A stretch of 64,000 nucleotides of DNA. Origin: Geobacteraceae bacterium GWC2_53_11. Its GTDB lineage: Bacteria > Desulfobacterota > Desulfuromonadia > Geobacterales > Pseudopelobacteraceae. Both the position numbers and the translations under genes were made by a program. Shown here piece after piece: positions 10,146 through 43,073 of the stretch; the stretch's first letter is position 1, and every line of letters starts with the position of its first letter. The stretch spans positions 83,422-147,421 of the forward strand of contig MGZJ01000041.1 of assembly GCA_001802645.1 (NCBI GenBank). Direction: 5' to 3'. The notes beneath the pieces are model-generated. The model was not told the DNA's origin, did not search any database, and saw only the letters and a program-made list of their open reading frames with translations.

Positions 10146-10240
10146 AAAACCGTGTGGTGAAACAATTGTGACGTCGTATGTAGCAGACGGAAGAGATGAA
10201 AGTCAAAAAGAAAATATGCCTATCGAGCCATGGCAAAGTA

Positions 10241-13074: not shown

Positions 13075-13103
13075 ATGTATTCCATCTTGAAAGGAGTCTC
13101 CCC

Positions 13104-13841: not shown

Positions 13842-13875
13842 ACACAGAGCAATTACCACAGAGGAGGTCACACTG

Positions 13876-14643: not shown

Positions 14644-14709
14644 TCCGAGACTTCAGGAAAGACTCCTGAAGGTTGTTTTGCATCATCCACTCATAAGGAG
14701 GCAATACTC

Positions 14710-15468: not shown

Positions 15469-15530
15469 TTACCGCAAGGCCGAATTGAAGATGAAAGAGT
15501 CCGGAACACCCAGGTCCCGGACTGCTAAAA

Positions 15531-15562
15531 GGTCTCCGCACGTATGCGGGGACCTTTTTTAG
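15531..15562 (+). terminator. Intrinsic terminator after the binding-protein genes
   Basis: GGTCTCCGCA-cgta-TGCGGGGACC followed by TTTTTT. Confidence 0.5.
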
Positions 15563-15772
15563 TATGTGAGGTTGCAAAAGCAAAAAACCGATGCCTTGAT
15601 ACATCAAACCATGTTTCCACAGATGGTTTTTTTCTTTCAAATTTGGTTTACCTTACCGCTCATTCCATGTTATCAATTCAATATACATTGATAAATCGGC
15701 ATGTTGCCATATCTCGCGGCAAGCATCCATGTGTTTATTAAAATATATCAACAAGCTTGTTAGGGAGCAGAC

Positions 15773-16951: not shown

Positions 16952-16982
16952 CCGGAATAAAGGCACATTTTGGCATAATAAA

Positions 16983-17017
16983 ATGAGGGCTACAGCAAAA
17001 GCTGCAGCCCTCATTTT
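16983..17017. terminator. Bidirectional terminator between the convergent MCP genes
   Basis: ATGAGGGCTACAGC-aaaa-GCTGCAGCCCTCAT, flanked by an A-run and a T-run. Confidence 0.6.
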
Positions 17018-17048
17018 TGGTGTACATCCTACGTTCAATTCTGAACGG

Positions 17049-18227
17049 TCACAGTTTGAATTTACTCACCAGATGCTGGAGTTCTCCGGATTGTTGAGAT
17101 AGAACTGCCGCCGCTGAAGCGGTACCTGTTGCTCCATGTGCGGTTTGCTGCACTATGTTGGTAATTTGCTGAATGGTATTGGTAATCTCGCCAGTGGTTG
17201 CGGTCTGTTGCTCTGCGGCAGTAGCGATTTGATTTACCTGCATGGTAACATTTTTAATCTGATCCAGAATTTGTTCCAATGCCTGCCCCGACCTCAACGA
17301 CGATTCCGTTCCCTTTTCCACCTCTGCCACGCCATCTTCGATTGCATCAACAGCCGCTTTAGTTTCGCTTTGTATGGACTTGATCATTACACCAATCTCA
17401 CGGGTTGCGCGCGTTGTGCGCTCGGCCAAAGCCCGCACTTCATCGGCGACGACTGCAAAACCACGGCCTTGCTCACCGGCTCTTGCTGCTTCAATTGCAG
17501 CATTAAGTGCCAGCAGGTTGGTTTGGTCGGCTATATCTTCAATAGTACCAATTATTTGGCCGATCTGGTCAGAACGCACACCTAATTCGAGAATTGTTTT
17601 AGCGGTACCTTTGACGCGTATGGCGATACGTTCCATGCCATCTGTTGTCTGGCGAACGATGTCTGCCCCAATTTGTGCGGCATCGCTGGCGCGACCGGAA
17701 TTTTCAGCTGCACTCAGACAATTATGTGATATTTCGCTGGATGTGGCCGCCATCTCTTCGCTGGCCACCGCAACCGCATTCGTCTGAGAAGCAACATGCT
17801 CGGAGCCGCTTGCTATCTGCTCAGCGTTACTGTGCAGATGTTGTGAAGCCATCGCTACCTGCTCTGATGTCTGGGAAATCTGGGCAATGACATCACGCAT
17901 GGTCGTCTGAAGGCTGTTGATGGCACGAATAATAGCGCTGATTTCATTATTGCGCTTGGCAACAATCGGTTGCGTCAGATCACCGGTGGTCAACATCTCC
18001 AAGTAACCAATGATGCGATCAAGGGCATCCTTGATTGATAAGAACAACAGGGCACTGAACACAATCCCGAGAAGCACGAAAACCGCCGTTGAAACTATGA
18101 CCATCGACATGGGAAGAATGCGACTTGCCACAACCGCAAAAATGATACAAAAACTATAGCAAGCGCTGAGCAGTATTATACGTGTCCGTACTTTCAGGCG
18201 ACGATACGGATCTAATATAAAGTTCAT
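17049..18227 (-). CDS. Methyl-accepting chemotaxis protein, paralog of 15773..16951
   Basis: 392 aa, collinear with the convergent copy (for example RTRIILLS(A/V)[12 protein letters not shown] and an identical signalling hairpin). Confidence 0.9.
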
Positions 18228-20020: not shown

Positions 20021-20105
20021 CCTCTATTTGGTAACCCGACTATCCTTTACAGGACTCGTAGCTTTGCGTCCCCAGGTCACCCTGAGTTTGCCTTTTACAA
20101 AGAGG
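20021..20105 (-). promoter_or_regulatory. GEMM-I cyclic-dinucleotide riboswitch aptamer
   Basis: Minus strand reads CCUCUUUGUAAAAGGCAAACUCAGG-GUGA-CCUGGGGACGCAAAGCUACGAGUCC...GUCGGGUUACCAAAUAGAGG. The hallmark GGCAAAC, GNRA loop, GGGACGCAAAGC, GGGUUACC and a closing CCUCU/AGAGG helix are all present. Confidence 0.75.
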
Positions 20106-26747: not shown

Positions 26748-27413
26748 TTGACCGTGGAAATCACTCTTAACGATATTGAAGTACGCGTGCTGGGCAGCCT
26801 GATTGAAAAAGAGCTGACCACGCCGGAATACTACCCGCTGTCACTCAATTCCCTCACCAACGCCTGTAACCAGAAATCCAATCGTGACCCGGTGATGGCC
26901 CTGGCGGAAGAAGACGTGGTGCGGGCTCTTGACTCCCTCCGCTTCAAACAGCTGGCAGTGCTGTCGGCAGATGGGGGACGTGTCCCGAAGTACCGCCATC
27001 TGCTGGCTGAAAAGATGGGGTTGGTTTCTGCTGAGCAGGCCATTCTCTGCGAACTGCTGGTGCGCGGCCCGCAGACCGTTGGTGAGTTGCGGACGCGTGG
27101 CGAGAGAATGCATCCGTTTGGCGACCTGACTGCCGTGGAAGAGGTTTTAAAGGAGCTGATGGAACGCGAGCAACCGTTCGTCGCCCTGCTGCCCCGCCAA
27201 CCGGGCCGCAAAGAGGGGCGCTATGCACAGCTGTTTTCCGGTATTCCTGAAATCACTGAAGAAAGTTCCGAAGCACGCCCCGAGGCGGCCCGGCAAAGGG
27301 TGCTGGCGGAAAATGAGCGTGTGACGAAGCTGGAAGAAGAGGTTGCCGCACTCCGGTCTGAAGTAGCCGTATTACAGCAGCAGATGGCAGAGTTTAAGGC
27401 GCAGTTTGAATAA
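26748..27413 (+). CDS. yceH: YceH/DUF480-family protein
   Basis: LNDIEVRVLGSLIEKELTTPEYYPLSLNSLTNACNQKSNRDP is the UPF0502/YceH signature. TTG start. Confidence 0.75.
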   Translation: MTVEITLNDIEVRVLGSLIEKELTTPEYYPLSLNSLTNACNQKSNRDPVMALAEEDVVRALDSLRFKQLAVLSADGGRVPKYRHLLAEKMGLVSAEQAILCELLVRGPQTVGELRTRGERMHPFGDLTAVEEVLKELMEREQPFVALLPRQPGRKEGRYAQLFSGIPEITEESSEARPEAARQRVLAENERVTKLEEEVAALRSEVAVLQQQMAEFKAQFE

Positions 27414-27484
27414 ACATGGTGCGTAGCAGGTTTTTCCACAGCCCGCTCGCCTGATAGATATCCTTCCACTCGTGCTGCAAAAAT

Positions 27485-27520
27485 GAAGCGGGGCATACCT
27501 CATGGCACGCCCCGCTCCGT
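27485..27520 (-). terminator. Terminator candidate downstream of the hydrogenase operon
   Basis: Minus strand GAGCGGGGCG-loop-TGCCCCGCTTC followed by ATTTTT. Confidence 0.4.
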
Positions 27521-27542
27521 TATTACGATCCCTCCACTACAT

Positions 27543-28208
27543 CTACTTCTCTTTTTTCACCGTAAACTTATACCCGCTGAACATACTGGAAATCTCGCTG
27601 CCATGCTCCTTGATGTCCATCAGCCAGGCGCTGTAGATGTGGTTGATGATGAAGCCGAAGATCAGCCACATGCTGAAATGGTGGGTAAGGCGCATTCCTT
27701 GGTCGGAGAACAGGGCGTACATGAAGCCGAGCGACTTGTGCATGACACCCTGCGGCGCATGCTGCGCATACAGCGAAAAGCCGGTCAGGATCATCAGGAT
27801 ATAGAGCAGAAACAGGGCAAAGTAGGCGGTGGTCGCCAGGGGATTGTGACCGATCGTTTCCGGAACCTCCTTGTCCACGAACATGTAGTAGCGGAGCATC
27901 TTGTTCATTTTTTCCCTGCCCGCCGCCGTCGCATAGGGGAAGAACTCCTTCCAGCCGGCATACTTGTTGCCGATCAGCGACCAGACCATGCGCGACAGCA
28001 CACTGACCGCAAACGCGTAGGCGGCGGTGAAGTGAACGAAGCGTATCCACCCCATGGTGAAATCGGAGGCCGAGCCGGCAAACGACACCGGTGTGCCGAT
28101 AAAGAATCCGGTCACCGCCAGGGTAACGATGGACACCACGTTGATCCAGTGGCACCAGCGTACCGGCAGCTCCCAGATGTAACACTTGAATTTGCAGGAA
28201 TCACTCAT
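27543..28208 (-). CDS. hyaC: [NiFe]-hydrogenase b-type cytochrome subunit
   Basis: 221 aa with 4 TM segments and conserved His residues. N-terminal YIWELPVRWCHWINV is typical of HyaC/CybH. Confidence 0.85.
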   Translation of the reverse strand: MSDSCKFKCYIWELPVRWCHWINVVSIVTLAVTGFFIGTPVSFAGSASDFTMGWIRFVHFTAAYAFAVSVLSRMVWSLIGNKYAGWKEFFPYATAAGREKMNKMLRYYMFVDKEVPETIGHNPLATTAYFALFLLYILMILTGFSLYAQHAPQGVMHKSLGFMYALFSDQGMRLTHHFSMWLIFGFIINHIYSAWLMDIKEHGSEISSMFSGYKFTVKKEK

Positions 28209-28219
28209 GTCTGCCTCCC

Positions 28220-29917
28220 CTAGGATACCTTGACCTTGACCACCTCATTGCCGTTGACATCCATCACGTGGACGGCACAGGCAAGGCAGGGGTCGAAGGA
28301 GTGGATGGTGCGCAGGATTTCCAGCGGCTTGTTGATATCCGCCACCGGCGTACCCACCAGAGCGGCTTCGTACGGGCCGCGCTGCCCCTTGGCGTCGCGG
28401 GGCGAGGCGTTCCAGGTGGACGGCACCACCGCCTGATAGTTGAGGATTTTCTGGTCCTTGATCTTGATCCAGTGCCCGAGCGCACCACGGGGAGCCTCGT
28501 GGAAGCCGTACCCCTTGGCTTCAGCCGGCCAGGTGGACGGATCCCAGCTTTCCCCATTGTGGATGCGGTAATCGCCCTTGGAGATGTTGCCGATCAGTTC
28601 ATCGAGCCACTTTGGCGTCTGTTGGGCCACCAGCAGGCAATCGATCCCTCGGGCCGCAGTGCGGCCAAGTGTGGAGAACAGCGCCGGAGCACCGACCCCC
28701 AGCTTGCCGAGCACCAGATCAACCACCGCCTTGGTTTCCTTGTGGCCCGATGCATAAGCCACCAGAATGCGAGCCAGCGGGCCGACTTCCATGGACTTTT
28801 CTTCGTAGCGCGGCGATTTTACGAATGAATATTTCGCATCGGTGTCGAGATTCTTGTACGGCGGCTTCGGCCCGGTATAACGGACTTCGGTCTCACCTTC
28901 GAACGGATGCAGACCTTTTCCGGCTCCGGCACTATTGTCGAACCAGGAGTGATCGACGTATTCGGCAATTTTGCCCTGATCGACCGGAATAACCTTGGAC
29001 AGATCCTTGTTCAGAATTGCTCCGGCCGGGAACCACTGGTTGCCACCGGCATCCGGGAACTCGCCGTAGGAGAGATAATTGCCGACCCCCTCGCCTATTC
29101 CGGCCCACTCCTTGTAGAACGAGGCAACGGCCAGCAGGTCCGGGATGTAGACCTTCTCCACAAAATCCTGGGCTTTCTTCAGCAGACGCTTTATTTCAAT
29201 CAGCTTGTCAGCGTTGAGGGCGTTCTGGGAATCGGGGTCGATGGGAATCGACATGCCGCCCACCAGGAAGGTCTGGGGATGCGGGTTCTTGCTCCCCAGG
29301 ATGGCGTGAATCTTGATGACGTCCTTCTGCCACTCCAGCGCTTCAAGGTAATGGGCAGTCGCCATCAGGTTGGCTTCGGGGGGCAGCTTGTAGGCGGGAT
29401 GCCCCCAGTAGGCGTTGGCAAAGGGGCCGAGACGGCCGGAGGCGACAAAGGCCTTGACCTTGTCCTGCACACCCTTGAAATAGGTGGCCGAATTGTTCGG
29501 CCAGTCGGACAGCGACGCCGCCAACGCCGCCGTTTTGGCCGGGTCGGCTTTCAGGCCGGAGGTGATGTCAACCCAGTCGAGGGCGTGCAGGTGATAGAAG
29601 TGGATGACGTGATCCTGCACGTTCTGGATGCCCATGATGATGTTGCGGATCAGCTGGGCATTGGGCGGGATTTTAATCTTGAGGGCATCCTCAACGGCCC
29701 GGATGGAAGCAATTGAGTGCACGGTGGTGCAGACGCCGCAGAAGCGCTGCGTCCAGAACCAGGCGTCACGGGGATCTCGCCCCTTGAGGATTTTCTCGAT
29801 GCCGCGAAACATGGTAGCGGAGCTCCAGGCGTCTTTTATCCTGCCCCCCTCGATCTCGGCTTCGATGCGCAGGTGTCCTTCTATGCGGGTAATCGGATCT
29901 ACAACAATCCTGGCCAT
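28220..29917 (-). CDS. hyaB: Group-1 [NiFe]-hydrogenase large subunit
   Basis: RIVVDPITRIEGHLRIE, RFCGVCTTVH (L1) and C-terminal DPCLACAVH, followed by a 15-aa cleavable tail. Confidence 0.95.
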   Translation of the reverse strand: MARIVVDPITRIEGHLRIEAEIEGGRIKDAWSSATMFRGIEKILKGRDPRDAWFWTQRFCGVCTTVHSIASIRAVEDALKIKIPPNAQLIRNIIMGIQNVQDHVIHFYHLHALDWVDITSGLKADPAKTAALAASLSDWPNNSATYFKGVQDKVKAFVASGRLGPFANAYWGHPAYKLPPEANLMATAHYLEALEWQKDVIKIHAILGSKNPHPQTFLVGGMSIPIDPDSQNALNADKLIEIKRLLKKAQDFVEKVYIPDLLAVASFYKEWAGIGEGVGNYLSYGEFPDAGGNQWFPAGAILNKDLSKVIPVDQGKIAEYVDHSWFDNSAGAGKGLHPFEGETEVRYTGPKPPYKNLDTDAKYSFVKSPRYEEKSMEVGPLARILVAYASGHKETKAVVDLVLGKLGVGAPALFSTLGRTAARGIDCLLVAQQTPKWLDELIGNISKGDYRIHNGESWDPSTWPAEAKGYGFHEAPRGALGHWIKIKDQKILNYQAVVPSTWNASPRDAKGQRGPYEAALVGTPVADINKPLEILRTIHSFDPCLACAVHVMDVNGNEVVKVKVS

Positions 29918-29920
29918 ATG

Positions 29921-31075
29921 TTATCCCTCCTTGGGTTCTTGGGGTTCTTTATCCTTGCGCAGCGCATTCAGAGCGCCATGAACAGCGAAGGCCGCAGCGG
30001 CACCAGCCACCAGGCCGAGACCGATCTTGTCGGCGGTAGCCTCGATGCCGAAGCCGGGAACATTGGGCAGACGGTGATACATCGGCCCCATGGTATCCCA
30101 GAAGTCCGGCTCGGAACAACCGGCACAGCCGTGGCCGGATGCCACCGGCCAGCTGGTTTTCTCGTTATAGCGCTGGGTCGGGCAGTTGTGGAACGTAGCC
30201 GGCCCCTTGCACCCCATCTTGTAGAGGCAGAATCCTTTGCGATGGGCGTCGTCGCCCCAGTGCTCCACATACTGGCCGGCATCGAAGTGCGGACGGCGCT
30301 CGCAGTTGTCGTGAATACGCTTGCCGTAGGCGAACAGCGGACGCCCCTTGCTGTCCATGGCCGGAATCTTGCCGAACACCAGGTAATGGACCACCGTGGC
30401 GGTCAGGTTGTCGGCGTTGCACGGACAGCCGGGCAGGTTGATGACCGTAGCCCCCGGCACCGCTTCCATGACGCCGACAGCGCCGGTCGGGTTGGGGGTT
30501 CCGGCGGCAATACCGCCGTACGATGCGCAGGTACCGATGGCAATGGTTGCCAGGGCGCTGCCGCAGACCCGGCGGGCAATTTCCAGATGCGTCTTGCCGC
30601 TGGTGCAGCCGTAAATACCGCCATCCTTCATGGAGATTGAACCTTCGACGACACAGAGGTATTTGCCTTTGTACTTGGTGATGGTGCTTTCCAGCGCCTC
30701 GTCAGCCTGGTGTCCGGCGGCGGCCATAATCGTCTCATGATAATCCACCGACAGGATATCGAGGATGATTTCGCCGACGGTCGGGTTGGCCGCGCGCAGC
30801 AGCGCCTCGCTGTCGCCGGTGCAGTCCTGGAAGTTCAGCCAGACCAGGGTCGGACGCTTGACCTCGTCCAGCGCCTGCGCCACCGAAGGCGCAAACGACG
30901 CCGGCAGCGACATTGCCGCTGTCATGGCGGAACAGAACTTGAGGAAGTCACGCCGGGACACCCCGCGCTGTTTGAGAATTTCTCCGACGGAGTACTCCTG
31001 CTGTTCAGAATCCTGGCTTACGTCGCCGCGTTGCTTGACCGAATCAACTTCGGTGTCCACTTTTTGTTTGCTCAT
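29921..31075 (-). CDS. hyaA: [NiFe]-hydrogenase small subunit (Tat-exported)
   Basis: Twin-arginine signal SRRDFLKFCSAMTAAM and Fe-S Cys patterns. ORF 29921..31153 trimmed to ATG 31075 (AAAGGGAGG upstream). Confidence 0.9.
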   Translation of the reverse strand: MSKQKVDTEVDSVKQRGDVSQDSEQQEYSVGEILKQRGVSRRDFLKFCSAMTAAMSLPASFAPSVAQALDEVKRPTLVWLNFQDCTGDSEALLRAANPTVGEIILDILSVDYHETIMAAAGHQADEALESTITKYKGKYLCVVEGSISMKDGGIYGCTSGKTHLEIARRVCGSALATIAIGTCASYGGIAAGTPNPTGAVGVMEAVPGATVINLPGCPCNADNLTATVVHYLVFGKIPAMDSKGRPLFAYGKRIHDNCERRPHFDAGQYVEHWGDDAHRKGFCLYKMGCKGPATFHNCPTQRYNEKTSWPVASGHGCAGCSEPDFWDTMGPMYHRLPNVPGFGIEATADKIGLGLVAGAAAAFAVHGALNALRKDKEPQEPKEG

Positions 31076-31180: not shown

Positions 31181-31196
31181 AGCACGAAGCATGCCA
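31181..31196 (-). promoter_or_regulatory. Sigma-54 (-24/-12) promoter for the hydrogenase operon
   Basis: Minus strand TGGCATG-CTTC-GTGCT against consensus TGGCACG-N4-TTGCW, with correct GG-N10-GC spacing. Lies about 100 nt upstream of ATG 31075. Confidence 0.55.
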
Positions 31197-31892
31197 ACAC
31201 TACTACAGCCGTAAAGCGTGATCACCCTAATTATAACGCTTTGTATTTGTGATATATTTTATAATAACAAACAAATTTTTAAATATTCTGAAACCACCAC
31301 AGAGTTTCTTTTGAGCCAATACTGACACAAAAATCACGTATTCACACCGGCCAGACACGCGCACCAATAAACGGAACGCCTCCACACTATTCAATTAACA
31401 CTAGTTATTTTGTATAGTTGCATCACATAAACCCCTCAGACACATCACATCCCAGCCACGTCACTACAATTGCTAAATTTCAGTGTACCAATCAGGCAAT
31501 AGCACCATCTTTTCAGAAAAACAGGACAATCTTCACCAGAATATATGTAGACTACCACCAAATCTGTATATCGCAAATTACTTGCAGAAAAAGCGTTCTA
31601 CAACTACTATTATTTCCATAACAGATATCGTACTCAACTGCATTAAAGATTCAATACGTCCGACATGGCGATAAATACAGCTTATAAAATCAGCATATTG
31701 TACAATTTGACAACTTGCCGTTTATTATGTGACATAGTTTTGAACATCGATCTGCAAGCACACTACAGGACAAGGGCGCGGCATCAGCCCTGCCACGTTG
31801 TGCCACATCAGGCGCAATACATGCCGGTTGTGCCACAATATGCACAAACAAGGATATCAGTCCCCATCTGAGGCGAGAACACGTGAGGTGAT

Positions 31893-34211
31893 ATGGCATC
31901 AATAGTGACACTCAAGGATAAATGCCGGAAATGCTACACCTGTGTCCGGAATTGCCCGGTCAAGGCAATCAAGGGAAAGACGACCCATACAGAAGTCATC
32001 TACGAGCGCTGCATCGGCTGCGGCAAGTGTGTTAATAACTGCCCGCAAAAGGCCAAGGTGTTTAACGACAAGGTTGCCTCCATGGAACGCCTGCTGGCAT
32101 CGGGGCAACTGGTTGTGGCCGTGCTGGGGGGTGATTTCCCGGCGTTTTTCCATAATGCTTCTCCGGGACAGCTGGTGGCCGGGCTGAAACAGCTCGGTTT
32201 TGCCGAAGTCCACGAAGGAGCCTACGGTGTCGAACTGGTGGCCGTCGAGTATGCCAGCGCCATCGAGGTTGCCACCACCCCGCTCATCTCATCCCACTGC
32301 CCCGCCATTGTCGATCTCATCGAGCGGCACTACCCGAAACTCATCAACAACCTCATCGAAGTTGTCTCGCCCATGGTAGCCATGGGGCGGTTCCTGAAGG
32401 GAGTTCTGGGCGCCGAAGTGAAGGTGGCCTACATCAGCTCCTGCAACGGCGCAAAGCTGGAGATCGAGTCTGAGGAGGTCCGGGGCGCCATCGACATCGT
32501 ACTGACCTGGCGGGAACTGAGCAGCCTGTTCAAAAGCCGTTCCCTCGACATCGCCACCATGGAAGAAGGTTCCTTCGACGGCATCGAACCCTACCTGGGA
32601 CGCCTCTTCCCGATCACCGAAGGCTCCTTCCGGGTCCTTCCCATCGTCACCGACCTGCTGGACGGCAAGATTGTCACCGCCACGGGAGAAGTCAATGTCA
32701 TGGAGATCATCAGCGACCTGGCACAGGGGCGCATTACGCCGCAGATCGCCGACATCCGCTTCTGCTACAACGGCTGCATCGGCGGTCCCGGCATGAGCCA
32801 GGAACTGACCAGCTTCTTCAAGCGCAATCTGGTCATATCCCATTTCCGGAGCGATGTCCCGTACCAGACCGCTTCCCATTACCTGGACATGAAGATAACC
32901 CCGCACCTGGCGCGCTCTTTTTCCAACCGGTTCGTCAAACTTAATGCTACCAAAGCAGGCGACATCACCAAAATACTCAACGCCACCAGCAAGTACACTC
33001 AGAAGGATGAGTTGAACTGCAGCGCCTGCGGCTACAAAACCTGCCGCGAATACTCGGTGGCAGTGCATCAGGGGCTGGCCAATCTGGAAATGTGCCTGCC
33101 GTACAACCTCCAGCAACTTGAAGAAGACCGGGGACGGCTCATGCAGAAATACGAACTGGCCCAGCGGGAACTGAACCGGGAGTACGGTGACGAGTTCATC
33201 ATCGGCAACGACAAAAAGACCCGGGAAGTGCTCGACCTGATCAAGCAGGTCGGCCCGACGCCGACAACCGTGCTGATTCGCGGCGAATCGGGCACCGGCA
33301 AGGAGCTTATTGCCCGGGCCATCCATCGCTACAGCAAAAAAAATGACAAACCGCTCGTCACGGTCAACTGTACTACCATCACGGATTCCCTGCTGGAAAG
33401 CGAACTGTTCGGCCATCGGAAAGGGGCGTTTACGGGGGCGGACGCCCACAAGATAGGACTGTTCGAGGCGGCGGACGGCGGCACCATTTTCCTCGACGAA
33501 ATCGGCGACATCACCCCGAAGCTCCAGGCGGAACTGCTGCGGGTGCTGGACAGCGGCGAAGTGCGGCCGGTTGGCGGGACAAGTTCAAAAAAAGTGGATG
33601 TACGCCTGATTGCGGCGACCAACAAAAATCTGGAAGAAGGGATTACCCAGGGATGGTTCCGAGAAGACCTTTATTACCGTCTGAACGTCTTTACCATTAC
33701 AACCCCTCCCCTGCGCAGCAGGGTCGAGTCCATTCCACTGCTTGCCCAACATTTCCTGGAAAAGGCCGGCGCCAAGCTTAACAAGAAGATCGTCAGCATA
33801 GAAAAGAGGGCGATCCAGGCCATGTCCCACTACCCCTGGTCCGGCAATATCCGGGAGATGCAGAATGTTATTGAACGGGCTGCGGTACTCACGCTCGACG
33901 ACACCATCCGGCTGGAACACCTGCCCCATTCCTTTTCCGAATATCATCCCGTGGAAAGTGGCGGCACATCCGCGCCCCGGACATCATTCCTGGCTGCTCG
34001 CGAGCGGCATGTGAGCACGGTGGAAAAAGACCTTATCCAACAATATCTGGCCGAAGCGCACGGACACGTGTCGCAGGCGGCCCAGCGGGCGGACATCCCG
34101 CGCAGAACGTTCTACCGTCTGTTGGAGAAATACGGACTTAAAGGAAGGGAGATAAAGGCACGTATCAAGGCTAACAACGTACCGCAGAACAGCAGGAACA
34201 ACCAAACTTAA
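31893..34211 (+). CDS. Sigma-54-dependent transcriptional activator with N-terminal 2x[4Fe-4S] ferredoxin + [FeFe]-hydrogenase-like (HydS-like) sensor domain
   Basis: CRKCYTCVRNCP and CIGCGKCVNNCP. H-cluster-like motifs SSHCP, SSCNGAK and FCYNGCIGGPG. Also CSACGYKTCx16C. AAA+ Walker A GESGTGKE, GAFTGA loop, and C-terminal Fis-type HTH. Confidence 0.85.
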   Translation: MASIVTLKDKCRKCYTCVRNCPVKAIKGKTTHTEVIYERCIGCGKCVNNCPQKAKVFNDKVASMERLLASGQLVVAVLGGDFPAFFHNASPGQLVAGLKQLGFAEVHEGAYGVELVAVEYASAIEVATTPLISSHCPAIVDLIERHYPKLINNLIEVVSPMVAMGRFLKGVLGAEVKVAYISSCNGAKLEIESEEVRGAIDIVLTWRELSSLFKSRSLDIATMEEGSFDGIEPYLGRLFPITEGSFRVLPIVTDLLDGKIVTATGEVNVMEIISDLAQGRITPQIADIRFCYNGCIGGPGMSQELTSFFKRNLVISHFRSDVPYQTASHYLDMKITPHLARSFSNRFVKLNATKAGDITKILNATSKYTQKDELNCSACGYKTCREYSVAVHQGLANLEMCLPYNLQQLEEDRGRLMQKYELAQRELNREYGDEFIIGNDKKTREVLDLIKQVGPTPTTVLIRGESGTGKELIARAIHRYSKKNDKPLVTVNCTTITDSLLESELFGHRKGAFTGADAHKIGLFEAADGGTIFLDEIGDITPKLQAELLRVLDSGEVRPVGGTSSKKVDVRLIAATNKNLEEGITQGWFREDLYYRLNVFTITTPPLRSRVESIPLLAQHFLEKAGAKLNKKIVSIEKRAIQAMSHYPWSGNIREMQNVIERAAVLTLDDTIRLEHLPHSFSEYHPVESGGTSAPRTSFLAARERHVSTVEKDLIQQYLAEAHGHVSQAAQRADIPRRTFYRLLEKYGLKGREIKARIKANNVPQNSRNNQT

Positions 34212-36566: not shown

Positions 36567-36896
36567 ATACTCTCCATGTTCAGCAACATTTTCATATCAT
36601 AGTTTGAATTGTACTTACTTTGAGCCAGCCTGCAACCGGTTTGATGAATCGTGACGTTAAAAAGGTAACATACAGGCCGCACGCGAGCGGTTTCGCCATT
36701 GCCAATCAGCTTCAAGCTGCAACTCCTATTGCATCATATCAATAGTAGTTGCAACCTTTCAGATGAACTCATGCAAGGTTCCGTACCAGTAACACTCTCC
36801 ATCACTGCAAGATATGTTGCTAGCACATCATACGACCTCAATCCTGCCATTTACCATAACTGTCTGTATTTACTTACAAACGTTCAACATCAAATA

Positions 36897-36912
36897 TGGC
36901 ACAAACAGTGCT
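36897..36912 (+). promoter_or_regulatory. Sigma-54 (-24/-12) promoter upstream of the multicopper oxidase gene
   Basis: TGGCACA-AACA-GTGCT with correct GG-N10-GC spacing, about 120 nt upstream of ATG 37032. Confidence 0.5.
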
Positions 36913-37031
36913 CACTGATGTCACGCAGTTCTTCTGTTTTGACATACGGTTTTCACATAAGCCGGGATGATGAACGTGGAACACAACAGAGCCGAGCAGG
37001 ATTCAGTTCACAGGGGAAAAGGAGACATAGT

Positions 37032-40000
37032 ATGCGAATGCGAAACGGAACCATTTCAGCGAGGCTGGGAATATCGTTCGCTATCTTTCTCACGGCAACT
37101 GTTTTGACCGGGAGCGTGGCAAACGCCGCCATCATCCACCCGGAATACTCGAAGCCGATCCTCGACCCGGCCACCCAACCACACTGGGTGACCGGCATAC
37201 CGAACGCCCTGGCCGACTACTTCACCTTTACCCCGTTTGACTCCGACTCCGCTGCCGTTGCGGTCGGCTTCCCGAGCGGGGTGTGCGGTAACGGCACCAT
37301 CCAGTCCGGACCATGGGCAGGGCAACCCCAGGAGGACTGCTACGCGATTTCGGTGCGCCAGTTCCAGCAGGACCTGGGACTTAAGGTTGAGGGAAGTTAT
37401 GTTCCCGGCGTTTCGGCAGGCACTCCCCTGCTCACCTCCGTCTGGGGCTATGGTTCGGCAAGCAACGCTCCCGCCGTCGGCCCATTTACCGCAGGCGTCT
37501 GGAATTTCCCCGCCCCCACGTTCAGAAATACCAGCAACAAACCGGCCCGGATTATCTGGGCCAATGAACTGCCCAACACACAGCCGGCCGGCTTCGACCC
37601 AACATACGACTGCGGCCCCAACGCGCCTGACTGTTACCCCTACAACCGGATAGTGACTCATGTCCACGGGGCGCATGTGGCGGACGACAGTGACGGTAAT
37701 GCCACGGCCTGGTACTCTCCGCTCGATCCCGTCACCAACGTTCCGATAGCGGCGGGTCCCGACTACCAACCGAGCAAATACGGACCTCCGGGCACCTACC
37801 GCTACGAAAACACCCAGGAGGCCGGAACCATCTGGTACCATGATCATGCCATGGGTTCCACCCATCTCAATACGAACCAGGGCATGGCCGGTTTTTTCCC
37901 GATCACCGACGACAACGAAAAGTACCTTCAGGGACTCACCGTTCCCACCACATCATTGCCGACCGGGATTACTGTCAACCCTGGGCCGAAGCTTCTCCCT
38001 ACCGGACAGTACGAATTGGGTTTTGCTCTTCAGGACCGCAACTTCTGGCCCGACGGCTCGTTGGCTATGCCGGACCTGCTGATCTATAACCTGCTGGCCG
38101 ACAGTGTCAACTGTTCGATCAATCCGACGACAAATGTCATCAATCCGGCCTGTCCGGCGGTCCCCTTTTCCAAGGACGCTCTTGGCGCCCTGATCCCCTA
38201 TAACGCAACCATTACCACCCCTGCCCGGCGCGGACCTTTTACCGCCACCGGCCGACCTTTTGCCGCCTGCACTCCGGACCTGGTCAACGGCGGCGTTATT
38301 CCTGACACCTGCCCGGAAGTGCCGTTTTCAAAGGCTGCGGACGGTCACCTGATCGCCTACAGCCCAACTGCACCAGTCCCCGGGCCATTCACCGCTTCGA
38401 GCGGCACACTTGAATATTTCGGCAACATCCCGGTTGTCAACGGCGTCGTGTTCGGCACGTACGCTATCGAACCCCGCGTGTACCGGATGCGTTTCATCGG
38501 CGGCGCCGACTCCCGCGCCTGGATCATGCAGCTTCAGGTACGCGGCACGGGAAATCCCGCAGCCGTTCCCCCGGTGCCGGACACGGTAATCCCGTTCTGG
38601 CAGATCGCTACCGAACAGGGTTTTGTGAAGAATCCGATCATGCGCAACCAGATGGTCCTGATGCCGGGAGAACGGCTCGACGTATTGGTCGATTTCAGCG
38701 CCCTCACAGCCGGACAGAAGGTCGTAATGGCCAATCTCGGTTCCGACATGCCGTACGGCAGTGAATTAATGCTGACCGGACTTCCTCCGGCGTCCCGTTC
38801 AATGGACATCCCGGAAATCATGGAGTTCAGTGTTCCCGCCCCCTTGCCTGCTGCATCCGGTATTCCCGAGATAGCCAAAAAACCGGCCGCACCTGCAGGC
38901 GCACTGGATGGTTACGTAGATACAACCATCAACCTGCGTCCACTTGACGCATCAGCGACATTCCCTCCCGCTCTGCCGCTTACGTCCCAATTGCCGGTGA
39001 GGAACGTTTCCCTGATAGAAATCACCGACCAGTACGGCAGAACCATGCCGACCATCGACAGCCGAGGCTTCATGCCGATGGGGGTGCCGATCACCGAGGT
39101 GATTAAGCTGGGCGACACGGAACAGTGGGACATCATCAACTCTACGGTGGATTCCCATCCGATGCATTTGCATCTGGTTTCATTCCAACTCATCGACAGG
39201 GTGGCGCTGCCGGCAACCCTTGATCCGGTCACCGGGCTGTCAACAGGCTTTACCCCTCCCGCAGACGACCCCATGGCCTATAGCTTTACCCCGCCCTCTT
39301 ACGTTGCGGACCCGGCTATCGCGCCGATCCCTCCTGCCCCCTGGGAACAGGGCTGGAAGGATACCATTGAGTGTCCGCCGGGTTATGTTACCAGGGTCAA
39401 GGCCAAGTTCGACATCCCGGGACTCTACGTATGGCACTGCCACATCCTGTCCCATGAAGAGCACGACATGATGCGTCCGATGGTTGTCACGACTCCGGCC
39501 GGATCGGTCAATCTAACGGCATCCACGGCAACCACATCACAAATGTCCGGATCGGTCGCACCGGTAACCTTCACCGCCTCGGCACTCACCACCATCCCCG
39601 GTTACGCCGAGACCGGCGGCTTTGAGTACCAGTTCACGGTCACTCCACCCTCCGGTGTCTCCGTGACCCAGCCGTCGATACCAGCCAACATGACGCCGAT
39701 GGTCGGCACCACCGCCGGATATTTCATGTCGAGACAAGCTGACTGGACGCCCCCATCCATTCCCGGAACCTATACTGTAAACGTAAACGCCAAGGGTTTG
39801 GGGCCGATTACTTCCAGCAACAAGGTAAAATCGTCCAGTCTCAATTATATAGTTACAGGACCTGAGATCTCTGGGGTCACATCAACCACTGCATCCGGAA
39901 TGTATCGAAGCGGGGCCAAGGTCAACGTGACCCTTATCTTCAATCAGGCTATATCCTCTACCAATGGCCTGACCATTACTCTCAATAGCGGTGCGACTTT

Positions 40001-43000
40001 TTCCACCGGTCGGCTGACCAATGTATCCAGTTTTAAAGGTACCTACACCGTTGCATCCGGTCAAAACACCCTGCCGGGTCAGAATCTTGATATCACCGCC
40101 ATCACCGGCACGGTCACTGATGCGGTCGGCAATCCGGTTTCTGCCCTGTCGGTACCATCCGGGACGAACCTGTCTAACAGCAAGCAGGTAATCATCGACA
40201 CCACACTACCAGTCCTGACCATAACCGACCCCACCAACACCTTGGTAAACGCCGCAACGCAGGCGGTTGCCGGGACCGTCAGCGATCAGAGCGGCATCCA
40301 GTCGCTGACAGTCAACGGTTCTTCTGTGTCAATCGGATCAGAAGGAGCATTCATCACCACCGTTTCGCTCGTTTCCGGAGTTAACACCCTTACGATTGCC
40401 GCCACCGACCAAGCAGGAAACCAGACGGTTGTGGCGCGAAGTATCACCCTCGACACGGTGAAACCGGTCACCACCGCTACTCCTTCAGGCGGAACCTACA
40501 GTGGCAGTGTCTCCGTAACTCTTTCAGCCAATAAAGCGGGAAGCACAATCTACTACACCACCGACGGCTCGTCCCCCACCACCGCTTCGGCTGTCTATTC
40601 GGGGCCTATTGTTCTCGCTGCAACAGCAACCACAACCTACAGTGTGCAGTATTTCGCTATTGATCCGGCGGGTAATAACGAGTCCGTAAAGTCCGTTACC
40701 TTCACCGTTCATGTGTCAGACCTGACCGCCAGCGTCAAGATCAACAACGGTTCAGCGCTGACCAAATCAACCGCAGTAACATTGGCCCTGTCCGCTACCG
40801 ACCCTCTGGGGGTCACAAGTATGCAGATTGCCTGCGACGGCACCAATTTCAGTGCAGTTGAGCCATACGACATAACCCGTGCCTGTACGCTCCCTGGCAG
40901 TGACGGTGTGAAAAACGTAGCAGTCAAATTCATCGACAGCGTCGGCACGGTCTACGCTCCGGTCACGGCCCAGATCACCCTTGACCTCACGGCCCCGGCC
41001 CTGACCGTAGCGACCCCCACCAGTACCCTGGTCAACACTCCCACGGTAACCGTGACCGGAACTGTCAGCGACAAAAACGGCATCCAGTCGGTCACGGTTA
41101 ATGGCACAGCAACTGCGGTCGGAGCGGGAGGTTCATTCAGCCGGGACGTCACCCTCGCCGGCGGAGCAAATACGATCACCGTCATTGCCACTGACAATGC
41201 GGGTAATCAGGTCACCAGAGTCCGCAGCATCACCCTTGATACGGTGCAGCCGGTCACCACGGTATCTCCCGCAGCGGGCACCTTCACCGGGAATGTGACC
41301 GTTTCCCTCACTTCCAACAAAGTTGGCAGCACCATTTACTACACGACCAACGGCACCACACCAACCACGGCGTCGCCGGTGTATACCGGCCCGATCGCTC
41401 TCAGCGCGGCAGCCACAACAACCTATACGCTGCTCTATTTCGCCGCAGACCAGGCCGGAAATAGTGAAGCTGTCAATACCGCCGGCTTCACGGTGCATGT
41501 AGCCGATCTGACTGCCGGAGTGAAAATCAACAACGGTGCTCAGCTCACCAATTCCGCCAACATCACCCTGAATCTTGCCGCCACCGATCCGGCAGGAGTG
41601 CCGAGCATGCAGGTTGCCTGTGACGGCACAACCTTTGGGGCCACAGAGCCCTATGCAACCGGCAAGGCCTGCACCTTGCCCACCGGGGACGGCCTCAAGA
41701 CCGTGGCGGTAAAATTCATCGACGGTGTCGGAACCGTTTATGCACCGGTCACGGCCCAGATCACCCTTGATACGACGCAACCGGTTGTTTCTGCTACGCC
41801 GGGCACTGGTGTTTATGCCGGTGCGGTCAGCGTAGAACTTGCTTCAAATGAATCGGCAACAATCTATTACACCACGAACGGCTCTGCTCCGACCACCGCA
41901 TCATCCGTCTACACTGCGCCGATTCAGCTCGGCTCTCCGGCAACAGCTGTCCTGTCACTTGCGTTCATGGCTGTTGACCCGTCCGGAAACGCCTCGGCGG
42001 TACAAACTGTGAATTACACCATCCATCAACCGGACCTGTCGGCGACCATGACAATCAACGGCGGTGCGTCATTGACCACCTCCCCGAGCGTGACACTATC
42101 GCTCTCCGCCACTGACCCCACCGGCGTAACCGAAATGCAGGTGGCGTGTGACGGAACAAACTATGCGGCAGCCGAGCCGTATGCCGTGACCAGGACGTGC
42201 GCCCTGACAAGCGGAGACGGGCTCAAGACAATACTGGCAAAGTTCAGGGATGGCCTCGGCAACTGGTATCCGTCGATAAATGCCCAGATAACCCTCGACA
42301 CCACCACGCCGGTCACTTCGGTCAGCCCGGCGGCAGGAACCTACAGCAACAGTGTGTCCGTCGTGCTGAATGCCAGTGAAGCGTCAACGATCTACTACAC
42401 GACCGACGGCACCAATCCCGTAGTGGGCGCAACGCCCGGGCCTGCCGTCTACACCGGGCCACTTACCTTTTCTCCGGGCGCGACCACTGACTTTACCGTC
42501 AAATATCTGGCCATTGACCGGGCGGGCAATGCCGAATCCGTCAAGAGCACAACCTACACCGTGCATGTCAATGACCTGGTAGGCAGTATTCTCATCAATG
42601 GCGGTTCGCCCTATACCGCCACTGCATATACGACTCTCACTCTCGGAGCGACTGATCCGGCAACGGTTACCGAAATGCAATTATCCAATGACGGCGTGTC
42701 CTATACGCCTTTCGAACCATATGCCACAACCAGGGCATGGTCCCTGAACGGCGGCGACGGGATAAAAACCGTGTATGTCCGGTTCAAGGACGGTACCGGA
42801 ACGGTGTACGCTCCGTACAGCGCCGAAATCACTCTTTCCGTAGCGGCGGCAACCACGCCGATCGGAGACCTGAACGGCGATACGGTTGTCAGCCTGGCGG
42901 ATGCCCTGCGGGCATTGCAGATCAGCGTCGGACTCTTCCAGCCAAACGTGAGCGAGCGGGTCAGGGGCGACGTTGCCCCATTGGCGGCAGGCAAACCGAG

Positions 43001-43073
43001 CCCTGACGGGGTCATCGACAGCGGGGATGTCCTGATCATTCTTAAACGTGTCCTCGCCCTGACAACGTGGTAA
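37032..43073 (+). CDS. Giant secreted multicopper oxidase (OmpB/OmpC-like) with tandem Ig-like/chitobiase-C-like modules and a C-terminal dockerin
   Basis: Start trimmed to ATG 37032 (GGAG upstream; signal peptide MRMRNGTISARLGISFAIFLTATVLTGSVANA). Four MCO copper motifs: HVHGAH, WYHDHAMG, HPMHLHL and HCHILSHEEHDMM. The C-terminus reads GDLNGDTVVSLADAL...GDVAPL...PDGVIDSGDVLIILK. Confidence 0.85.
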   Translation: MRMRNGTISARLGISFAIFLTATVLTGSVANAAIIHPEYSKPILDPATQPHWVTGIPNALADYFTFTPFDSDSAAVAVGFPSGVCGNGTIQSGPWAGQPQEDCYAISVRQFQQDLGLKVEGSYVPGVSAGTPLLTSVWGYGSASNAPAVGPFTAGVWNFPAPTFRNTSNKPARIIWANELPNTQPAGFDPTYDCGPNAPDCYPYNRIVTHVHGAHVADDSDGNATAWYSPLDPVTNVPIAAGPDYQPSKYGPPGTYRYENTQEAGTIWYHDHAMGSTHLNTNQGMAGFFPITDDNEKYLQGLTVPTTSLPTGITVNPGPKLLPTGQYELGFALQDRNFWPDGSLAMPDLLIYNLLADSVNCSINPTTNVINPACPAVPFSKDALGALIPYNATITTPARRGPFTATGRPFAACTPDLVNGGVIPDTCPEVPFSKAADGHLIAYSPTAPVPGPFTASSGTLEYFGNIPVVNGVVFGTYAIEPRVYRMRFIGGADSRAWIMQLQVRGTGNPAAVPPVPDTVIPFWQIATEQGFVKNPIMRNQMVLMPGERLDVLVDFSALTAGQKVVMANLGSDMPYGSELMLTGLPPASRSMDIPEIMEFSVPAPLPAASGIPEIAKKPAAPAGALDGYVDTTINLRPLDASATFPPALPLTSQLPVRNVSLIEITDQYGRTMPTIDSRGFMPMGVPITEVIKLGDTEQWDIINSTVDSHPMHLHLVSFQLIDRVALPATLDPVTGLSTGFTPPADDPMAYSFTPPSYVADPAIAPIPPAPWEQGWKDTIECPPGYVTRVKAKFDIPGLYVWHCHILSHEEHDMMRPMVVTTPAGSVNLTASTATTSQMSGSVAPVTFTASALTTIPGYAETGGFEYQFTVTPPSGVSVTQPSIPANMTPMVGTTAGYFMSRQADWTPPSIPGTYTVNVNAKGLGPITSSNKVKSSSLNYIVTGPEISGVTSTTASGMYRSGAKVNVTLIFNQAISSTNGLTITLNSGATFSTGRLTNVSSFKGTYTVASGQNTLPGQNLDITAITGTVTDAVGNPVSALSVPSGTNLSNSKQVIIDTTLPVLTITDPTNTLVNAATQAVAGTVSDQSGIQSLTVNGSSVSIGSEGAFITTVSLVSGVNTLTIAATDQAGNQTVVARSITLDTVKPVTTATPSGGTYSGSVSVTLSANKAGSTIYYTTDGSSPTTASAVYSGPIVLAATATTTYSVQYFAIDPAGNNESVKSVTFTVHVSDLTASVKINNGSALTKSTAVTLALSATDPLGVTSMQIACDGTNFSAVEPYDITRACTLPGSDGVKNVAVKFIDSVGTVYAPVTAQITLDLTAPALTVATPTSTLVNTPTVTVTGTVSDKNGIQSVTVNGTATAVGAGGSFSRDVTLAGGANTITVIATDNAGNQVTRVRSITLDTVQPVTTVSPAAGTFTGNVTVSLTSNKVGSTIYYTTNGTTPTTASPVYTGPIALSAAATTTYTLLYFAADQAGNSEAVNTAGFTVHVADLTAGVKINNGAQLTNSANITLNLAATDPAGVPSMQVACDGTTFGATEPYATGKACTLPTGDGLKTVAVKFIDGVGTVYAPVTAQITLDTTQPVVSATPGTGVYAGAVSVELASNESATIYYTTNGSAPTTASSVYTAPIQLGSPATAVLSLAFMAVDPSGNASAVQTVNYTIHQPDLSATMTINGGASLTTSPSVTLSLSATDPTGVTEMQVACDGTNYAAAEPYAVTRTCALTSGDGLKTILAKFRDGLGNWYPSINAQITLDTTTPVTSVSPAAGTYSNSVSVVLNASEASTIYYTTDGTNPVVGATPGPAVYTGPLTFSPGATTDFTVKYLAIDRAGNAESVKSTTYTVHVNDLVGSILINGGSPYTATAYTTLTLGATDPATVTEMQLSNDGVSYTPFEPYATTRAWSLNGGDGIKTVYVRFKDGTGTVYAPYSAEITLSVAAATTPIGDLNGDTVVSLADALRALQISVGLFQPNVSERVRGDVAPLAAGKPSPDGVIDSGDVLIILKRVLALTTW
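40200..42845 (+). repeat. In-frame tandem module repeats inside the MCO gene (order A-B-C-A-B-C-B-C-B-C)
   Basis: Recurring segments: LVN..T..V.GTVSD..GIQS.TVNG (A), STIYYTT(D/N)G..PTTAS.VY.GPI (B) and DLTA.VKINNG..LT......L.L.ATDP.GV..MQ.ACDGT.F...EPY (C). Each is about 85-90 aa. Confidence 0.75.

Follow-up and report, generated by a model that had tools for sequence, protein, structure and literature searches.

Described regulators of hydrogenase genes and hydrogenase-derived sensors

Transcription of uptake [NiFe] hydrogenases in response to an H2-related signal is the task of the HoxBC/HupUV sensor together with the HoxJ/HupT kinase and HoxA/HupR, a system that works through an NtrC-family activator and has a genuine H2-binding [NiFe] site as its sensor. 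Sensory [FeFe] hydrogenases of the HydS type, such as TmHydS (group C/M2f) and TamHydS (group D/M2e), carry two [4Fe-4S] motifs, an H-domain and a Cx2Cx4Cx16C motif ahead of an output that is a PAS domain or a histidine kinase, and TamHydS binds the H-cluster even though it carries the replacement M353S. In eukaryotes without maturases, the H-domain of Nar1/NARFL (IOP1), which has a role in Fe-S protein assembly, retains the Fe-S ligands but not the pocket for the 2Fe subcluster.

In Geobacter, an activator with a hydrogenase domain was noted upstream of hgtR and proposed to sense H2, in one discussion sentence qualified as 'data not shown' (Ueki and Lovley, 2010; PMC2817479). Both the activator and the idea of an H2 sensor, which the initial annotation of the DNA studied here had put forward as a possibility, are therefore already on record. 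The G. sulfurreducens protein, GSU3363, was found by name in no paper in our literature search. G. sulfurreducens expresses hgtR more strongly with H2 than with acetate; expression is also raised with formate, in an acetate biofilm at -0.01 V and in a bccR mutant, which the authors of those data read as a thermodynamic response and not as an H2-specific one. Co(II) stress raises hgtR as well.

The window (the whole 64-kb stretch of DNA analysed) encodes an activator of this same family, with the domain order of the hgtR-linked Geobacter protein, divergent from a [NiFe] hydrogenase operon, hyaABC. It would do the job of HoxBC/HupUV with one polypeptide in place of three or four components, and its sensor is not homologous to theirs. 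With moderate confidence, we consider it a one-component sigma-54 activator with an Fe-S redox sensor that descends from HydS, is devoid of the [2Fe] pocket, and switches on hyaABC.

The activator and its hydrogenase-derived sensor

The activator gene and the parts of its product are as follows:
31893..34211, plus strand: gene for a sigma-54 enhancer-binding protein with a hydrogenase-derived sensor (772 aa)
31905..32054, plus strand: N-terminal ferredoxin-like domain, aa 5-54, with two Fer4 Cx2Cx2Cx3CP motifs (Pfam)
32148..32789, plus strand: H-domain homologue, Fe_hyd_lg_C, aa 86-299 (E 2e-43)
33012..33101, plus strand: C-terminal accessory cluster motif, FeS PF04060, aa 374-403 (Pfam; invariant in the family)
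33096..33185, plus strand: predicted long helix or coiled-coil linker, aa ~402-431 (low-confidence model; sequence conserved)
33198..33698, plus strand: sigma-54 interaction AAA+ domain, Sigma54_activat PF00158, aa 436-602 (E 1e-69)
34017..34133, plus strand: Fis-type helix-turn-helix (HTH), HTH_8, aa 709-747 (Pfam; E 9e-10)

The open reading frame is genuine, with an ATG start and the ribosome-binding site GAGGTG 5 nt upstream, and OGU16029.1 from a Geobacteraceae MAG is the exact protein that it encodes; ppk lies downstream in convergent orientation. The domain order given by the initial annotation was borne out by the profile searches. The two ferredoxin-type motifs at the N-terminus are C11x2C14x2C17x3C21P and C40x2C43x2C46x3C50P, all eight cysteines of which are invariant across the family, and this domain is presumed to serve as an electron-entry relay. 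The Fe_hyd_lg_C match scores 149 bits against a cutoff of 22.1, and the best matches among solved structures are true hydrogenases (E 2e-26). The motif that had been named as typical of HydS, here C376-x2-C379-x4-C384-x16-C401, is indeed that described for M2e/M2f sensory hydrogenases (Land et al., 2020). One residue past its last cysteine begins the linker, which runs into the AAA+ domain and is presumed to be the signal-transmitting element; in the structure model its helix spans residues 406-431, at low confidence. The direct fusion to the sigma-54 AAA+ module and the Fis-type HTH likewise holds, with Walker A (GESGTGKE), GAFTGA (aa 511-516) and AAA_lid_14 all present.

The first 430 residues accordingly have the full HydS-type order of TmHydS and TamHydS (two [4Fe-4S] motifs, H-domain, Cx2Cx4Cx16C), whereas the output is AAA+/HTH, and no PAS domain was matched in the protein by Pfam. 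Among NCBIfam models none claims the activator, the best match of the sensor being TIGR04105 (165 bits against a cutoff of 450). The full-length model, built from a 28-sequence family alignment, has a mean pLDDT of 54 and a pTM of 0.42, with only parts of the H-domain core above 80 pLDDT.

Outside the Geobacterales, the nearest sequence relatives of the sensor are HydS-like sensors (35-43% identity), so that the proposed homology to HydS-type (group C/D) sensory [FeFe] hydrogenases stands, down to the exact module order. A grouping with Nar1/NARF, which had been named as a finding that would speak against a hydrogenase-type sensor, does not apply by descent: Nar1/NARFL belongs to a different branch of the superfamily and does not act in transcription, although the domain in the window resembles it in that the 2Fe pocket is lost and the [4Fe-4S] site kept. 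Within the order, the activator is 68% identical overall to a protein (P0071) encoded upstream of an hgtR that matches, at both ends, the primers published for GSU3364, and its sensor is 62-70% identical to those of hgtR-linked Geobacter, Geotalea and Geomonas proteins. It shares with the hgtR-type activators the pocket signature S-H-C-P, S-S-C-x-x-[AG]-K and D-x-R-F-C, and with its hgtR-linked relatives an identical HTH recognition helix (IPRRTFYRLL). An hgtR is present at 37 of 58 related loci, and tblastn found none in the 64-kb window. The activator is a paralogue, not an orthologue, of the hgtR-linked Geobacter activator, re-targeted to an uptake [NiFe] hydrogenase.

The H-cluster site and the signal

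Alignment to solved [FeFe] hydrogenases, with H-cluster residues numbered after CpI, equates SSHCP of the activator with TSCCP, SSCNGAKLE with MPCTAKKFE, and DIRFCYNGCIGGPG with ExMxCxxGCxxGGG. All four cysteine ligands of the H-cluster [4Fe-4S] are present, as the initial annotation had stated: C136, C184, C291 and C295 correspond to CpI C300, C355, C499 and C503. The four, including the bridging cysteine (the C503 equivalent), are invariant in the 58 Geobacterales members, as are the twelve cluster cysteines counted over the H-domain and the C-terminal motif. Four sets of [4Fe-4S] ligands are recognizable by sequence, namely two ferredoxin-like sets, that of the former [4Fe-4S]H, and Cx2Cx4Cx16C, and the sensor is predicted to carry four [4Fe-4S] clusters without a [2Fe] subcluster.

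The surroundings of the former [2Fe] site are altered. G79-G80-D81 occupies the positions of A230-P231-S232, S182-S183 replaces M353-P354, A187 replaces K358, R289 replaces M497, and H135 stands in place of C299. Across the 58 Geobacterales sequences, position 353 is always Ser, 497 always Arg and 358 always Ala, Gly, Ser or Cys; Pro occurs at neither 231 nor 354 in any of them, and 57 have His at 299. In [FeFe] hydrogenases K358 contacts the distal CN ligand, and A230, P231, S232 and P354 line the cavity. Among 143 related HydS-like representatives, P231 (134), P354 (135) and K358 (127) are each retained in 89-94%, and all three are kept in 30/30 distant HydS-like sensors beside hydA or hydEFG. 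The replacement of C299 by His, which had been likened to the deviations of group C, is real but not typical of that group, since this position in the 143 relatives is mostly Ala, Pro, Ser or Thr, and His in only four. By this alignment, the pocket in which the catalytic [2Fe] subcluster would bind is gone from the Geobacterales sensor. The replacement residues are themselves invariant or nearly so across the Geobacterales, which suggests a functional site and not decay.

The gene neighbourhoods differ from those of HydS. Catalytic hydA adjoins 27/27 loci of histidine-kinase-type sensors with canonical motifs, and a maturase gene lies within 10 kb at 16 of the 27; a scan within 10 kb of the gene found hydA or hydEFG at 0/59 Geobacterales loci, and the 64-kb window holds no hydEFG. 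Our literature search found no explicit statement on hydEFG in Geobacter genomes. The fusion of a HydS module to Sigma54_activat and an HTH, seen in 16 of 66 longer relatives, also occurs with an intact site: canonical HydS–sigma-54 fusions from other phyla (P0128, P0147, P0167, which lies next to hydGEF, and roughly twelve further clusters at 50% identity) retain APS and GPCxAKK, with K358 in 14/15, all lost in the window protein. Unlike the latter, they adjoin bifurcating-type hydA operons or directly follow hydG-hydE-hydF; in the three loci in question, hydA is adjacent in two (L086 and L087) and the third (L089) directly follows hydG-hydE-hydF. No description of these canonical fusions was found in the literature search, and they are better candidates for true one-component H2 sensors.

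The direct sensing of H2 that had been proposed from a count of the four cysteines is therefore doubtful, because K358, P231/S232 and P354, which would hold [2Fe], are absent in 58/58 sequences and no locus has hydA or hydEFG within 10 kb. Such a sensor would hold the H-cluster in full, within an unusual second sphere of His135, Arg289 and Ser182; H2 would reduce it, and the C-terminal cluster would pass the signal on to the AAA+ domain. The invariant cysteines, the HydS module order, the conserved replacement residues and the precedent of TamHydS are all in keeping with this. The changes at M353, M497 and C299 occur also in HydS enzymes that bind the H-cluster, which weakens the argument from loss of the pocket, and the invariant Arg289 might conceivably stand in for K358; moreover, assembly of active [FeFe] hydrogenase independent of the known maturases has been proposed in some organisms. 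H2 induces hgtR, an observation equally compatible with direct sensing, and the link to H2 physiology holds family-wide through the hgtR and hya contexts. However, the response of hgtR extends to formate, electrode potential and Co(II), and the residues missing here are retained in every sensor found beside hydA or hydEFG. To our knowledge, G. sulfurreducens has been described as having [NiFe] hydrogenases only. We regard a direct H2 sensor as unlikely, and see a similarly small chance that His135, Arg289 and Ser182 hold a diiron H-cluster or some variant of one in bacteria without a catalytic [FeFe] hydrogenase.

An equally improbable reading is that the sensor reports cluster damage by O2, reactive oxygen species, NO or Co, tuning the Hya-type hydrogenase in stress defence, with oxidation or degradation of the exposed former [4Fe-4S]H as the switch instead of its reversible reduction. 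Without [2Fe], the site above the cubane would be exposed, with His and Arg around it. Induction of hgtR by Co(II), a metal that attacks Fe-S clusters, agrees with this reading, and the Hya hydrogenase of G. sulfurreducens has been linked to oxidative-stress defence. Against this, induction of hgtR by the reductants H2 and formate better matches a reduction signal, and a relay of four clusters with a ferredoxin-like entry is more typical of electron transfer than of a sensor that sacrifices its cluster. With the residues to hold a hydrogen-splitting metal centre gone, the Fe-S redox sensor that we favour more likely reads the redox state of the cell than H2 itself.

The hyaABC operon and its control region

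The genes divergent from the activator, and the elements between them, are the following:
29921..31075, minus strand: hyaA, [NiFe] hydrogenase small subunit, with TAT motif SRRDFLK
28220..29917, minus strand: hyaB, group 1 [NiFe] hydrogenase large subunit (E 4e-239)
27543..28208, minus strand: hyaC, b-type cytochrome subunit (profile matches)
31181..31196, minus strand: hya sigma-54 (-24/-12) promoter, TGGCATGCTTCGTGCT, conserved across loci
31312..31329, no strand assigned: enhancer palindrome 1, TGAGCCAATACTGACACA, conserved in L003, L006 and L007
31799..31816, no strand assigned: enhancer palindrome 2, TGTGCCACATCAGGCGCA, ~85 bp upstream of the activator start codon
31829..31846, no strand assigned: enhancer palindrome 3, TGTGCCACAATATGCACA, 30 bp from palindrome 2

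The neighbours are hyaABC, as first read, and encode a [NiFe] small subunit exported through TAT, a large subunit (best solved match 3myr_B) and a cytochrome b; the true start of hyaA is the ATG at 31075, with the ribosome-binding site GGGAGG ahead of it. The sigma-54 promoter that had been called good holds up with a reservation. It is two mismatches from the consensus, and a scan of the window with TGGCACG-N4-TTGCW gave six matches where 13.3 were expected, so that the match is not above chance as a pattern. The claim rests instead on conservation, the promoter being retained at L003, L006 and L007, whose orthologous intergenic regions are otherwise divergent.

Three copies of a palindrome with the consensus TGTGCCA-N4-TGGCACA lie between the activator and hyaABC. 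Four matches with at most two mismatches occur in the 64 kb, three of them inside this 740-bp intergenic region. The fourth (10123-10140), upstream of a chemoreceptor gene, was considered as a further target and rejected as an RNA stem, because it lies within a cobalamin riboswitch (9973-10163, minus strand). Palindrome 1 is about 115-130 bp upstream of the hya promoter, the classical enhancer distance, and is conserved together with that promoter at four hya-linked loci; palindromes 2 and 3 are more than 600 bp away from it, and palindrome 3 is possibly an autoregulatory or distal enhancer site. The sites themselves are established by conservation, and the activator is predicted to bind them. 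Most of the 37 hgtR-linked loci have the same palindrome and a sigma-54 promoter upstream of hgtR, so the logic is shared and the target differs: there the downstream gene for a 62-aa repressor, here the divergent hyaABC.

In view of the conserved sigma-54 promoter and the three enhancer palindromes, the activator very probably drives the divergent hyaABC operon. That the adjacency is a coincidence, with the activator serving another target such as hgtR and a different sigma-54 activator controlling hya, is very unlikely: the chance-level promoter pattern, the position of palindromes 2 and 3 beside the activator start (which could be purely autoregulatory) and a related MAG that has an hgtR-linked (L032) and a hya-linked (L007) paralogue recognizing the same motif would all allow it, but the window has no hgtR, all members of the clade (window, L003/L004, L006 and L007) have the activator and hya in divergent orientation, and palindrome 1 persists with the promoter at enhancer distance in a spacer that has otherwise diverged. 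As read from the DNA, the predicted regulon logic combines one palindrome and sigma-54 promoters with a choice of three targets, hgtR, hyaABC and a small RNA. No Rfam family matched the transcript that is conserved downstream of the activator at Desulfuromonadales loci.

Proposed circuit and its meaning for Geobacterales

Under the favoured reading of a redox-sensing activator, a cytoplasmic electron carrier or partner would reduce the cluster chain of the sensor, which would therefore report how reduced the cell is; the underlying signal may be, for example, the oxidation of H2 or formate, or thermodynamically limited respiration. The redox state of the last cluster, adjacent to the linker helix, would govern assembly of the AAA+ ring or its ATPase activity. 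The active protein would then occupy the TGTGCCA-N4-TGGCACA palindromes and open the sigma-54 promoter of hyaABC, turning on the periplasmic uptake [NiFe] hydrogenase.

If a diiron H-cluster were kept after all, the protein would be a single-polypeptide H2 sensor that directly switches a [NiFe] uptake hydrogenase, HgtR and a small RNA throughout the Geobacterales. It would be the first transcription factor to respond to H2 as one component, and its second sphere would be a new way to hold the H-cluster. The family is also a natural experiment, a HydS-type sensor in which the Fe-S ligands are kept and the 2Fe pocket has given way to a conserved set of His, Arg and Ser. Sister proteins with an intact pocket, found beside hydGEF, thus offer a direct comparison, and this brings within experimental reach the question of what in the H-domain is required to insert the cofactor and what is required to signal. 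For Geobacter and its relatives, with HgtR as the known effector, this activator family is the obvious candidate for the sensor still missing from the response to H2 or reducing power, and bears on how these bacteria switch between the oxidation of acetate and the use of H2 or formate.

Domain architecture and ancestry of the activator

The sigma-54 activator encoded beside hyaABC, whose exact protein entry is OGU16029.1 (Geobacteraceae MAG), was resolved by Pfam into the following modules, the profile search proposed in the initial annotation returning the H-domain.

31893-34211, + strand: activator gene (772 aa)
aa 5-54: two 4Fe-4S ferredoxin motifs
aa 86-299: iron-hydrogenase large-subunit H-domain (E 2e-43)
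aa 374-403: small FeS domain PF04060, exactly C376x2C379x4C384x16C401
aa 436-602: sigma-54 interaction AAA+ domain (E 1e-69), GAFTGA present
AAA_lid_14: lid of the AAA+ domain
aa 709-747: Fis-type HTH

Residue-level alignment with solved [FeFe] hydrogenases places C136, C184, C291, and C295 at the [4Fe-4S]H ligands of CpI (C300, C355, C499, and C503), and H135 at the proton-relay C299. M2e and M2f, subclasses with a putative sensory role, have in common two N-terminal clusters and a C-terminal Cx2Cx4Cx16C cluster, and both have lost C299 (Land et al., 2020). Because Pfam, the alignment, and this study agree, the sequence statements of the initial annotation are all correct (domains, four H-cluster cysteines, His at C299, and the Cx2Cx4Cx16C motif). 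By sequence, the protein has four cubane-binding sites in the arrangement of the sensory hydrogenase HydS, C401, the last ligand of the last cluster, directly adjoins a predicted long helix running into the AAA+ domain, and the sigma-54 activation module is intact.

Geobacteraceae and Desulfuromonadales commonly encode relatives that align over the full length at 66-93% identity, and databases already label some of these [quoted passage not shown] The novelty earlier ascribed to an H2-sensing activator with a hydrogenase domain does not stand: the domain fusion and its proposed role in sensing H2 were both published in 2010, when the gene upstream of hgtR (GSU3364) was described as coding for an enhancer-binding protein that contains a domain like that of iron-only hydrogenases, the -24/-12 promoter of hgtR was mapped, hgtR expression was found to be higher with H2 than with acetate, and HgtR was described as a 62-aa repressor (Ueki and Lovley, 2010). 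At one related locus (L001), the activator is followed by a small gene whose product begins MGRMRENP and ends SGDQKAA, nearly exact matches to the published cloning primers. Because its adjoining small gene matches these primers, related protein P0071, which shares 68% identity with the window protein, is effectively the GSU3363 orthologue. The literature searched contained no mention of GSU3363 by name and no experimental follow-up of the hgtR-upstream activator.

Among 58 related loci surveyed for context, hgtR lies ~200-250 bp downstream of the activator at 37; hyaABC is divergent in the window’s clade of at least 87% identity (the window, L003/L004, L006, and L007); and a conserved non-coding transcript replaces hgtR at 12 Desulfuromonadales loci. 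A single MAG (AlinenLipids_bin-4284) has both L007, divergent from hyaABC, and L032, upstream of hgtR, and in a quick neighbour-joining distance tree the hya-linked clade nests beside hgtR-linked proteins of Geobacter, Geotalea, and Geomonas. Based on this coexistence and nesting, the window’s activator gene is a re-targeted paralogue of the hgtR-linked activators.

The H-domain pocket and the sensed signal

An exhaustive representative search returned ~590 proteins (E < 1e-30) sharing the whole 410-aa sensor module. In 66 longer representatives the output domain is a histidine kinase (37-39), sigma-54 AAA+ (16), or, in a few, GGDEF. The pocket of the 143 non-Geobacterales representatives resembles that of TmHydS. 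In CpI numbering, K358 contacts the distal CN ligand, and A230, P231, S232, and P354 line the cavity.

Pocket residues (CpI numbering)
P231 (within A-P-S): Pro kept in 134/143 non-Geobacterales representatives
M353: Gly in 137/143 non-Geobacterales
P354: Pro kept in 135/143 non-Geobacterales
K358: Lys kept in 127/143 non-Geobacterales; A/G/S/C in 58/58 Geobacterales sequences
A-P-S: G-[CSGT]-[SDE] in 58/58 Geobacterales
G-P-C: S-[STAG]-C in 58/58 Geobacterales
M497: Arg in 58/58 Geobacterales
C299: His in 57/58 Geobacterales

The Fe-S cysteines are all invariant in the 58 Geobacterales sequences, and these patterns indicate that the pocket is rebuilt, with the replacement residues under purifying selection. 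A sister-lineage protein (P0123; L088:2168-4435) keeps A-P-S, yet K358 is already gone, C299 is replaced by His and M497 by Arg, and the S-S-C motif is present; this putative intermediate state may record the order of remodelling. The AlphaFold model of the activator was too poor for pocket inspection.

Gene neighbourhoods split in perfect coincidence with the pocket residues. All 27 distant sensor loci keep APS and GPCxAK and have hydA adjacent, and 16 of them also carry one or more of hydG/E/F no further than 10 kb away, whereas at the 59 Geobacterales loci both counts are zero. The 64-kb window itself contains neither hydEFG nor hyp genes. A survey in Cell (2024) cautions that maturase absence is not decisive in every lineage. 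The three canonical sigma-54 fusions examined, which come from other bacteria and keep APS and GPCxAKK, lie beside bifurcating-type hydA operons (L086, 367-8410; L087, 1266-10253) or directly after hydG-hydE-hydF (L089, 4520-10268). These canonical fusions, of which we found no description in the literature searched, look like the real candidates for transcription factors that sense H2 as a single component.

For the Geobacterales protein, the direct H2 sensing first proposed retains module order and the four cysteines in its favour, and has against it the replaced pocket residues and the 0/59 neighbourhoods; direct sensing through an H-cluster in an unorthodox pocket is improbable. hgtR, the main target of the family, responds to H2, formate, a -0.01 V acetate biofilm, a bccR mutant background (a thermodynamic response according to the authors of that work), and Co(II) stress. 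Because this range is wide, a protein that monitors redox or Fe-S status inside the cell is a better fit than a dedicated H2 receptor. Read from the Co(II) response, the protein could be an oxidant or metal-damage sensor, which we consider similarly improbable beside the responses to H2 and formate. For the favoured redox-gated Fe-S chain, a cytoplasmic donor would pass electrons to the ferredoxin-like domain, and this donor would become more reduced during oxidation of H2 or formate or under limited respiration; how reduced or oxidised the cluster chain is would gate oligomerisation or ATPase activity, and the active AAA+ ring would open the hya promoter. As a whole, this mechanism has about an even chance of being correct.

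Regulatory DNA and regulon

Start ATG at 31075 (true start), divergent from the activator: hyaA, TAT motif SRRDFLK
Divergent, with hyaA and hyaC: hyaB
Divergent: hyaC, cytochrome b
31312-31329: palindrome 1, within the 740-bp hya-activator spacer
31799-31816: palindrome 2, same spacer
31829-31846: palindrome 3, same spacer
9973-10163, - strand: cobalamin riboswitch (110 bits), upstream of a cobU-cobT-cobS-thiC cluster
20026-20101, - strand: variant c-di-GMP-I-GGC riboswitch (62.7 bits, narrowly over the gathering score of 59), close to a tRNA gene, with a small ORF downstream
36699-43073, + strand: secreted-type protein (2124 aa), multicopper-oxidase domain and repeated CHB_HEX_C / Fn3-associated modules; the 402-aa protein that follows has no family match
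10615-18227: three chemoreceptor genes (one 819 aa with HAMP, two 392 aa) alternating with three PBP_like_2 periplasmic binding-protein genes, followed by an EAL-HDOD protein gene

The hyaABC products together form a periplasmic uptake [NiFe] hydrogenase of group 1. The operon stops at hyaC. In L003/L004 that gene is followed by one for a HycI/HyaD-type maturation protease; the window has no such protease gene anywhere, and its position (26748-27543) is taken by a DUF480 gene on the opposite strand.

Nearly every hgtR-linked locus has a TGGCAC-N5-TGGCA/TAGCA promoter upstream of hgtR and, ~100-130 bp further upstream, the palindrome TGTGCCA-N4-TGGCACA. The HTH recognition helix (IPRRTFYRLL) is unchanged throughout the family. 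The window has four palindrome matches (≤2 mismatches), three of them in the spacer; the fourth (10123-10140) was rejected as a target site, being a stem of the cobalamin riboswitch that mimics the palindrome. Aligned with L003, L006, and L007, the spacer is poorly conserved overall; preserved in all four are the minus-strand promoter TTGGCATGCTTCGTGCT and its equivalents, palindrome 1 (~115-130 bp upstream of the hya promoter), and the palindrome pair by the activator start. As a bare pattern match the hya promoter is not above chance, and it is credited because it is conserved and spaced from a family-specific enhancer. This agrees with the earlier proposal of a sigma-54 circuit, and the activator very likely drives hyaABC; adjacency without regulation, which the chance-level match alone would allow, is highly improbable given the conserved promoter and palindromes.

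The element replacing hgtR in Desulfuromonadales (L056:12470-12620; also L033, L037, L039, L044, L045, L047, L048, L049, L050, L053, and L058) comprises, in this order, two enhancer palindromes, a near-perfect sigma-54 promoter (TTGGCAC-N5-TTGCT), and a conserved ~90-nt non-coding transcript. The transcript ends in a terminator hairpin with an invariant loop, CUCUCUCCCCC, that looks like an anti-Shine-Dalgarno sequence; no Rfam family matched it, and it shows modest covariation. It is a candidate new small RNA under activator-family control.

As far as the literature searched shows, the hya-linked paralogue, the common enhancer motif, the systematic loss of 2Fe-pocket residues across the Geobacterales clade, and the contrast with canonical HydS-sigma-54 fusions beside hydGEF or hydA are new. 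Since the L007 and L032 activators seem to recognise one and the same palindrome, cross-talk between these paralogues or a common regulon is implied.
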